Origin: Escherichia coli O127:H6 str. E2348/69
GTDB taxonomy: Bacteria > Pseudomonadota > Gammaproteobacteria > Enterobacterales > Enterobacteriaceae
DNA: 64,000 bases
NCBI RefSeq assembly: GCF_000026545.1
Contig: NC_011601.1
Direction: 5' to 3' (one strand)
This document shows, in pieces, positions 59,401 to 62,400 of this stretch (positions are counted from its first letter, which is position 1; each line of letters opens with the position of its first letter). The position numbers were made by a program.

Positions 59401-62400
59401 AAACCAGAACACCCAGGCATTCCACAGTGATGCGCCTTGTAACGGCGCATGTGGGGTGAAATAGCTCAAGCTGAAGCCAACGAAGGTCAGCAGGAACAAG
59501 GTGACAATCAATAACAAAATACGGCGTAAGGTGAAGATAATCATGGCTTTTTCACCTCATCCTGTTTCTCGCGATACACCCCAGCAAAGGAGGCGTTACC
59601 AAACGGACTAAGTACCAGACCTTTGATATCGTACCGATAGGCCTGCAAACGCAATGACGACGCCAGCGGCAAAATGGGCAATTCCTGCGCCAGAATACTC
59701 TGCGCTTCGTCATAGGCTTCGATGCGCGCCGCCAGTTGCTGCGAGGAGAGCGCCTTACGCAATACGCTGTCGAATTTCGGATCGCACCAGTGGGCGAGGT
59801 TGGTCTGTGAATGAATTGCCGCGCAGCTCAGTAACGGACGGAAGAAACTGTCCGGGTCGTTACTGTCCGTCGCCCAACCGGATAACGTCAGATCATGGCT
59901 CATATCCATCAACCGCGCCTCCTGAAAACGACCTTCTACCGGCACAATCACCACTTTTACGCCAACCTGTGCCATATCCGCCTGAATCAGTTCGGCTGTT
60001 TTCAGTGGACTGGGGTTCCACGCCTGCGAACGAGTGGGCACCCACAGTTTCAGCGTTAAGTTTTCCAGCCCCAACGCCTTCAACTGTTCGCGCGATTTTG
60101 CCGGATTGTATTCAGTAATTTTAGCCTCGTTGTCATAGGCCCACGAGGCGCGCGGTAAAATAGAGGCCGCCGTTTCAGCCGTACCATAATAGATGGATTG
60201 CATCAGGCGCTGGTTATTAATCGCCAGTGCCAGCGCATGGCGGACCGCCGGATTATTTAGCGGCGGTTTAGCGGTGTTAAACGCCAGATAGGCGACGTTC
60301 ATCCCCGGGCGCAGCGTTAAACGCAAACGCGGGTCATCACGCAAAATGGATAGCTGACTGGCGGCAGGCCAGGCCAGGACGTCGCACTCCCCGGTCAGGA
60401 GTTTCGATAATCGTCCTGTACCGCCAGAGCCTAAATCCACCACCACTTGTGGCATCAACGGCTTACCACGCCAGAAATCATCATGACGTTGTAAGCGAAT
60501 ATATTGCCCGGCGCGGTATTCCGACAACTGATACGGACCTGTGCCGACCGGTTGACGGTCGAGTTGCTCCTGGCGATCTTCTTTCTCTAACTTCCCTGCA
60601 TATTCTGCCGACATGACCGAAGCATAATGGGTCGCCAGGTGCCACAAAAAAGAAGCATCCGGCTGAGCCAGACGGAACTCAACGGTATGATTATCCAGCT
60701 TGCGGACGCTTTTCACGTTATCGGCAAATTGCAGACTGTCGAAATAGGGGAAGTTACTGCCGTTGACGTTATGCCACGGGTTGTTGCGGTCAAAAATCCG
60801 TTGGAAGGTAAACACCACATCATCGGCATTCATTTTACGAGTGGGAGTAAACCAGTCGGTTTTTTGAAACGGAACATCGCGACGCAGGTGGAAGCGATAG
60901 GTCGCGCCGTTGTCGAGTACTTCCCAGCTTTCGGCAAGTTCCGGCATCAGGCGATAGGTATAGGGATCGACATCCAGCAGTCGATCATAAAACTGGGCGG
61001 CAAGGGTATCGACAATTAACCCACTGCTCGCTTTGGATGGGTTAAAGGTGTTGACTTGCCCGCTGACGCAATAGACAAAACCGCTGTCACGGATATCAGC
61101 ATGCGGGGGGGATTCAGGCGCGGCGATTGCCTGACCACTCACAAGTCCAGCAATCACCAAAAGAGACGATAATACCTGGCGCATAATATTAAGGGATTTT
61201 ATGTAAAGAGGCTATCTTACTAATATTTAATGACATTTGCCATTACCGTTTGTTTTCAGGGGTAATAATGAGGGCCGTGTGGTTGGTCATTGAACAGGTG
61301 GCGTCGCCATCAGTTCAACATTCGTACCCGTGATTTCTTTATAACTATAACTCACAGAACAACTTAGCGAGGAGCAGAGCGGTACGATCGTGAGAAACCC
61401 ATTAAAGCACGCTGCTGTGCGTGTCATTTTTAGCCGGATGCAGCGCGAACGCTTTATCCGGGCAACGATACTGACCGATCGTCTGCAATTAAATAATTAC
61501 TCATTACCCCATTGATTCAAAAACTCTGCGATCTCATCAATGCGTACGGGATTAATCCCCGCTTCAGCAGCCATTTCATGTTGGGCTTCTTCGCTGATTT
61601 CTTCATTGTTCATCAAACGGGTGAGCAGTAACTGGAAGTAGAGGGCCAGCGGTGTGCGTTCAGCGTCTGCGACAGGCTCTGCGCATTCGGTCGCGTACTC
61701 ATCGGCAATATCAAAATATTTTAGCGGGATATCGTGGTTCATTATTTGCCCCTGGGGTTAATGCGCTAAGCATAAGGGCGGATGATAGCACTCGTGATCC
61801 GGGTCATACATCTTTTTATAGTTAATGGCGCGGTGCATTACCCTCAGGCAGGATAATGCGCCGCGCATTCGACTATTACGTTTTGCTCACCGGCGTTCTG
61901 TCGCCATCATACAATGGCACTTTGCGATAGCGGCGGATCAAATACCACAAATATGCGCCGCCTAACGAAGCCCATACCATCCCGGTTGCGCAATTCGATG
62001 CGGCAATGAAAATTTTGCAGGATGCGCTGAGAGATTAATACGTAGAAGCAGGGTTAACGCAATAATGCCTGATGCGCAGCGCTTATCAGGCCTGCAAACG
62101 ACGTATTGATTTTGTAGGCCTGATAAGGCGTTCACGGCACACCCGGCAAGTTGCATTGTCGAAATGCTAAAGCTGGTGCTTTTTCAGCAACGCGCGGAAC
62201 TGATGATAGGTTAACCCCAGCAATTCAGCGGCGCGCTTCTGGTTATATTTCCCCTGTTGCAAACTGAGTTGCAGCAACTCTTTTTCCTGCTGCATCTGAA
62301 ACTCGCGTAAATCCAGTGGCAGCGTCGGAAGCGAGGTGTTTTCTGAAACGGCGATGGCTTCTTCAGATGGACGGCGTTTAAAGGGATCAATAATGATGTC

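Follow-up and report, generated by a model that had tools for sequence, protein, structure and literature searches.

The putrescine utilisation (puu) genes are known to be missing from phylogenetic group B2 of Escherichia coli, with 'puuPADRCBE, putrescine degradation II' listed in Table 5 of Touchon et al. (2009, PLoS Genet, PMC2617782) among the activities specifically absent in this group, and with B2 strains described as lacking both puu operons in the account given by Hogins et al. (2023, Microbiol Spectr, PMC10580932). The same absence has been reported again by the Reitzer laboratory (eLife 2025, PMC11968103; 2025 preprint, bioRxiv 10.64898/2025.12.08.692790), where it is argued that B2 strains transport putrescine but do not degrade it by the major pathway. 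The enteropathogenic strain E2348/69 belongs to group B2 according to Touchon et al. (2009) (PMC2617782, from which its phylogroup is taken here), and the 64-kb stretch of its DNA that we analysed, referred to here as the window, is an instance of the published absence in that the genes, the lineage and the strain are the same. The Table 5 entry and the corresponding statement in Hogins et al. (2023) report the absence alone, giving neither the anatomy of the junction (the gene stubs, the ACCA shared by the two sides and the 8,851 bp involved) nor proof of loss over non-acquisition. The puu deletion in B2 is already known and is an ordinary lineage-specific deletion, and what we add here is a small refinement consisting of the exact breakpoints, proof of loss over non-acquisition, and evidence for a single common event.

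In K-12, as annotated in the derivatives DH1 and ER1709, the gene order is ymjA–puuP–ymjE–puuA–puuD–puuR–puuC–puuB–puuE–pspF (with the puu cluster given as b1296–b1302), and ymjA and pspF are 9,266 bp apart compared to 424 bp in E2348/69 (positions 61743–62166 from the ORF listing and RefSeq annotation, with ymjA reaching 61742 on its 5' side and the stop codon of pspF starting at 62167). The initial annotation, which was made from the sequence alone, had given the K-12 order correctly and placed about 9 kb of puu genes between ymjA and pspF, and its gap of about 420 bp had exact coordinates. We consider it almost certain that the 424-bp gap was left by a single ancient deletion of 8,851 bp in an ancestor of phylogroup B2.

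Anatomy of the ymjA–pspF gap

The features of the locus are as follows, with positions numbered along the window:

59541–61184, minus strand: sapA (ORF listing and RefSeq annotation)
61497–61742, minus strand: ymjA, intact, the left flank of the scar (81-aa ORF; PGAP annotation; 97.5% identity to K-12 YmjA by tblastn)
61743–61875, no strand: ymjA–puuP spacer, 133 bp, retained (matches K-12 without gaps, 3 of the 133 bp being different)
61876–61979, minus strand: puuP 3' remnant, a 5'-truncated pseudogene of 104 nt (the stop, the 33 complete codons before it and 2 nt of a further codon)
61976–61979, no strand: deletion junction, a 4-bp microhomology (ACCA) common to the puuP and puuE sides (BLAST; pairwise alignments)
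61980–62038, plus strand: puuE 3' remnant of 59 nt (the last 19–20 codons and the TAA stop)
62039–62166, no strand: puuE–pspF spacer, 128 bp, with two inverted REP (BIME) elements (aligns to the K-12 and O55:H7 CB9615 spacers)
62167–63144, minus strand: pspF, intact, the right flank of the scar (PGAP; by tblastn, 98.2% identical to K-12 PspF across 325 aa)
63311–63979, plus strand: pspA (ORF listing and RefSeq annotation)

The flanking genes sapA, ymjA, pspF and pspA and both spacers are collinear with the K-12 locus at ~94–98% identity, with the exception of the REP-containing spacer which is more variable (~86% to K-12). The pspF start given here (ATG at 63144, 325 aa beginning MAEYKDN...) is the one used by PGAP and in K-12, and the mechanical ORF begins at a GTG at 63159 (330 aa). 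An NCBIfam scan of YmjA returned nothing useful, and neither did a scan of the 35-aa PuuP stub, which is too short.

We aligned the gap with K-12, CFT073 and the puu+ strain O55:H7 CB9615, and every base was accounted for in pairwise alignment by K-12-homologous segments which sum exactly to the length of the gap (133 + 104 + 59 + 128 bp). What is missing relative to K-12 is 8,851 bp of the cluster region (positions 1501–10351 of the K-12 locus L003), which includes puuP, ymjE, puuA, puuD, puuR, puuC, puuB and puuE sequence. When all of the K-12 Puu proteins were compared with the 64-kb window by tblastn, nothing was found beyond the PuuP C-terminal stub and a match to PuuE residues 402–421, and the absence of the cluster between ymjA and pspF that had been proposed initially was borne out.

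The puuP remnant encodes 32 of 34 residues identical to the C-terminus of K-12 PuuP (in the frame 61983–61876 on the minus strand) and differs from K-12 puuP by 6 mismatches in 104 nt, with the position of the stop codon and the 133-bp downstream spacer being the same in both. Homology to K-12 puuP ends at 61979, and PGAP annotates a pseudogene 'missing N-terminus' at 61876–61983. The initial annotation had suggested that a short C-terminal peptide on this strand might be a remnant of a transporter gene, and while there is a real 3' remnant of a transporter gene (puuP) at ~61876–61979, the frame of the peptide was wrong, as it is an accurate minus-strand translation from 61978 but is out of frame with puuP. 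Directly 3' of the puuP stop there is a strong hairpin in the minus-strand transcript (~61818–61876; -33.1 kcal/mol, z = -5.7), which has no U-tract and which we do not call a proven terminator. A scan for terminators had no hits within the gap, and a sigma-70 promoter scan of 61400–62300 had none either. Two further ORFs, one of 46 aa on the plus strand (61825–61965) and one of 64 aa on the minus strand (61962–62156), were dismissed as spurious as they overlap REP or antisense-remnant sequence.

The second remnant, the puuE stub, had been overlooked earlier, and here 18 of 20 residues are identical to K-12 PuuE. These stubs bear directly on whether the short gap might instead be ancestral, with the non-B2 lineages having gained the puu cluster between ymjA and pspF by insertion. 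An ancestral gap would suit the common placement of B2 as an early-branching group, as well as the arrangement in Salmonella, where pspF presumably adjoins the sap operon without puu, but inserted genes cannot leave pieces of themselves in an empty site, and the in-frame 3' stubs of puuP and puuE meet head-on at a microhomology. We regard an ancestral gap as extremely unlikely, since it is already refuted by the two remnants, and conclude from the stubs of both end genes that the site reflects deletion and not non-acquisition. The choice first offered between a lineage difference and a deletion can be settled as both, with the lineage difference caused by the deletion.

The junction and the mechanism of deletion

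The left BLAST match to K-12 ends at 61979 and the right match starts at 61976, giving an overlap of four bases with which the alignments agree, and both breakpoints are within coding sequence (puuP codon ~428 and puuE codon 402). The location of the breakpoints is relevant to the suggestion that the deletion was mediated by a REP/BIME or IS element and not by microhomology, for which it can be said that REP elements are found to the right of the junction, at a distance of ~80 bp, and that REPs are known rearrangement hot spots. Such mediation is nonetheless very unlikely given breakpoints in coding sequence, a REP-containing spacer which is collinear with that of puu+ strains, no IS, REP or other repeat sequence at 61976–61979, and no REP or IS copy in the alignment at the K-12 puuP breakpoint (L003 ~1500). 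The REP/BIME elements here are bystanders, being part of an ordinary puuE–pspF spacer and outside of the deletion junction.

The deletion took most of puuP, then ymjE, puuA, puuD, puuR, puuC and puuB, and most of puuE, with the end genes puuP and puuE convergently oriented and the two breakpoints joined at ACCA. As there is no IS or REP element at the junction, and given the ACCA, the most likely mechanism judged from the junction alone would be RecA-independent illegitimate recombination, via replication slippage or microhomology-mediated joining. By our rough estimate a 4-bp microhomology would occur by chance in ~1–2% of random junctions, and the ACCA is suggestive of such a mechanism but is not proof of it.

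The junction also makes an ATG on the minus strand at 61980–61978 (GGG ATG GTA here compared to GGT CTG GTA in K-12). A 34-codon ORF (61876–61980, minus strand) starts with this ATG and encodes the final hydrophobic segment of PuuP, and the ORF is intact in each of the five B2 strains compared. The ORF is probably meaningless because there is no obvious Shine–Dalgarno sequence upstream of the ATG.

Distribution, origin and consequences of the deletion

By BLAST, the E2348/69 chromosome NZ_CP059840.2 has 100% identity to the 904 bases that run from ymjA into the 3' part of pspF, and the 3 kb between 61000 and 64000 gave 100% matches by megablast to this E2348/69 record as well as two further O127:H6 assemblies. 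A contiguous match across the junction was found by BLAST in 1,044 of 5,426 complete E. coli genomes. The idea that the deletion is strain-specific, or an assembly artefact of one record, has no point in its favour and is already refuted by the three independent E2348/69 or O127:H6 assemblies, which are identical here, and by the junction in more than 1,000 other complete genomes, so that we give it a negligible chance of being correct.

The 8,851-bp K-12 puu segment was matched in 4,393 of the genomes, including 18 in which the match was at 80–90% identity alone. Setting these 18 aside leaves ~4,375 genomes with real puu DNA which, with the 1,044 junction carriers, make up ~5,419 of the 5,426, and the junction and puu classes are essentially mutually exclusive. 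The one 80–90% match listed is a 128-bp stretch; 128 bp of the K-12 puuR–puuC spacer (L002 ~18092–18219; query positions 4609–4736) have an 85% match elsewhere in the puu-less NZ_OW967795.1 (3591447–3591574), and this is presumably a dispersed repeat.

A puu cluster elsewhere in the genome would have counted against its loss. We therefore used a chimeric query, consisting of positions 61000–64000 of the window and of internal 300-bp fragments, reverse-complemented, taken from each of the seven puu genes, in a megablast search sensitive to matches of ~85% identity or more. In the E2348/69 chromosome record, which ranked first, there was one matching place only, and this was matched by the window part of the query, with no megablast-level match to the internal fragments of the seven puu genes. 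The same query found no second place matching the puu gene fragments in the best 60 junction carriers listed. We found no point supporting a relocation of the cluster within the E2348/69 genome. Such a move is barely conceivable when the query has a single place on this chromosome and those of the two other O127:H6 strains, when the window holds no puu genes beyond the stubs by tblastn, and when the counts given above leave almost no room for genomes having both the junction and puu.

The junction sequence CCCATACCATCCCGGTTGCGC is identical in E2348/69, CFT073, AVS0790, SCU-123 and TUM13754 when aligned, and all five of these B2 scars have in common a GAT>GTT change 7 nt from the junction (A>T at 61986, in puuE codon 405) which neither of the puu+ strains K-12 and CB9615 has. 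This change may have arisen neutrally after the deletion, or else as a by-product of the joining itself. The identical junction and the common derived change are what lead us to a single event, and at the level of sequence comparison this indicates one shared ancestral deletion. The deletion is inherited by E2348/69, CFT073 and ST131 strains, and by about a fifth of sequenced E. coli. Carriers recognised by name as known B2 strains are CFT073, JJ1887, O25b:H4, other ST131 strains and E2348/69 (B2 status among the 1,044 carriers was assigned by strain name, for known B2 strains alone). For the B2-type deletion, the junction offers a potential marker that would be simple to use by PCR or in silico, and the puu deletion also confirms that the window is from a B2 strain, though this matters little beyond bookkeeping.

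With the deletion, B2 E. coli (including EPEC1, UPEC and ST131) have neither the main route of putrescine catabolism nor the PuuP importer. From the genes removed, both PuuP and the gamma-glutamylation pathway that begins with PuuA would be expected to be lost, as is also stated in the literature. Putrescine handling would then rest on uptake by PlaP and Pot and on the PatA/PatD–GabT/GabD route alone, to the extent that E2348/69 carries the genes for these. The PatA/PatD transaminase route (with GabT/GabD) is reportedly redundant for the use of putrescine as a nitrogen source, and the Puu pathway is said to be required for putrescine as a sole carbon source. Because of this redundancy, growth with putrescine as the nitrogen source, which had been put forward initially as a check, would not be decisive, and growth with putrescine as the carbon source would be the more decisive phenotype.

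PuuP and PlaP have been described as receptors that act in parallel in the entry of group-5 CDI ionophore toxins (PMC11630599). Loss of PuuP may affect susceptibility to PuuP/PlaP-dependent CDI toxins, and B2 strains would retain PlaP as their only group-5 CDI toxin receptor. For B2, the Reitzer laboratory has proposed that loss of the Puu pathway raises intracellular putrescine, and the absence of puu has already been invoked in the literature for higher polyamine levels in this group. We think it unlikely that the loss of puu was adaptive rather than neutral; if it were adaptive, having PlaP as the sole entry receptor would leave B2 cells one mutation away from CDI toxin resistance. Including the 34-codon junction ORF as part of an adaptive loss would be more speculative. 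A further consequence of the deletion is that pspF and ymjA are now co-directional neighbours, separated by the BIME and the puuP hairpin alone, and from this arrangement read-through from pspF into ymjA is possible.

The REP-containing puuE–pspF spacer

The REP-type palindromes that had been noticed in the gap are in the 128-bp puuE–pspF spacer, where the motif pair, an inverted repeat and a fold were all found. The REP motif CTTATCAGGCCTRC / CTTATCMGGCCTRC occurs as two inverted copies at 62082–62095 (plus strand) and 62114–62127 (minus strand) with 0.07 expected by chance, the spacer also contains a 17-nt inverted repeat, and it folds with -47.1 kcal/mol (z = -4.3 compared to shuffled sequences), with the structured core of the BIME at ~62056–62157. 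As in the REP/BIME intergenic palindromes described for E. coli, there are two ~35-bp imperfect palindromes, inverted and with the canonical GCCTGATGCG...CTTATCAGGCCT motif, and the pair here lies between convergent genes. An Rfam scan of 61000–63400 produced only two sub-threshold matches to the REP-derived naRNA4 and no RNA gene in the gap. The first of these matches, at 62117–62190, scored 22 bits where the gathering score is 59.5, and this sequence does not belong to the naRNA4 family. The second is another REP-like palindrome outside of the gap, in the sapA–ymjA spacer (61423–61463, minus strand), with 24.7 bits against the same gathering score of 59.5.

Just past the puuE stop there is an 11-bp segment, CGTAGAAGCAG (62041–62051), which B2 strains and the puu+ strain O55:H7 CB9615 have and K-12 lacks. 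Its presence in both B2 and CB9615 points to a deletion on the K-12 side which is unrelated to the puu deletion. The region including the second REP and the last pspF codons (62113–62190) has two alleles among carriers of the puu deletion, an E2348/69-like allele (585 records with at least 99% identity), and a CFT073-like allele which resembles that of puu+ strains and has 93.6% identity to the window. The existence of two alleles suggests local recombination or REP conversion, and the difference reaches the 3' end of pspF, where the C-terminus is ...HQL here compared to ...HQI in K-12.
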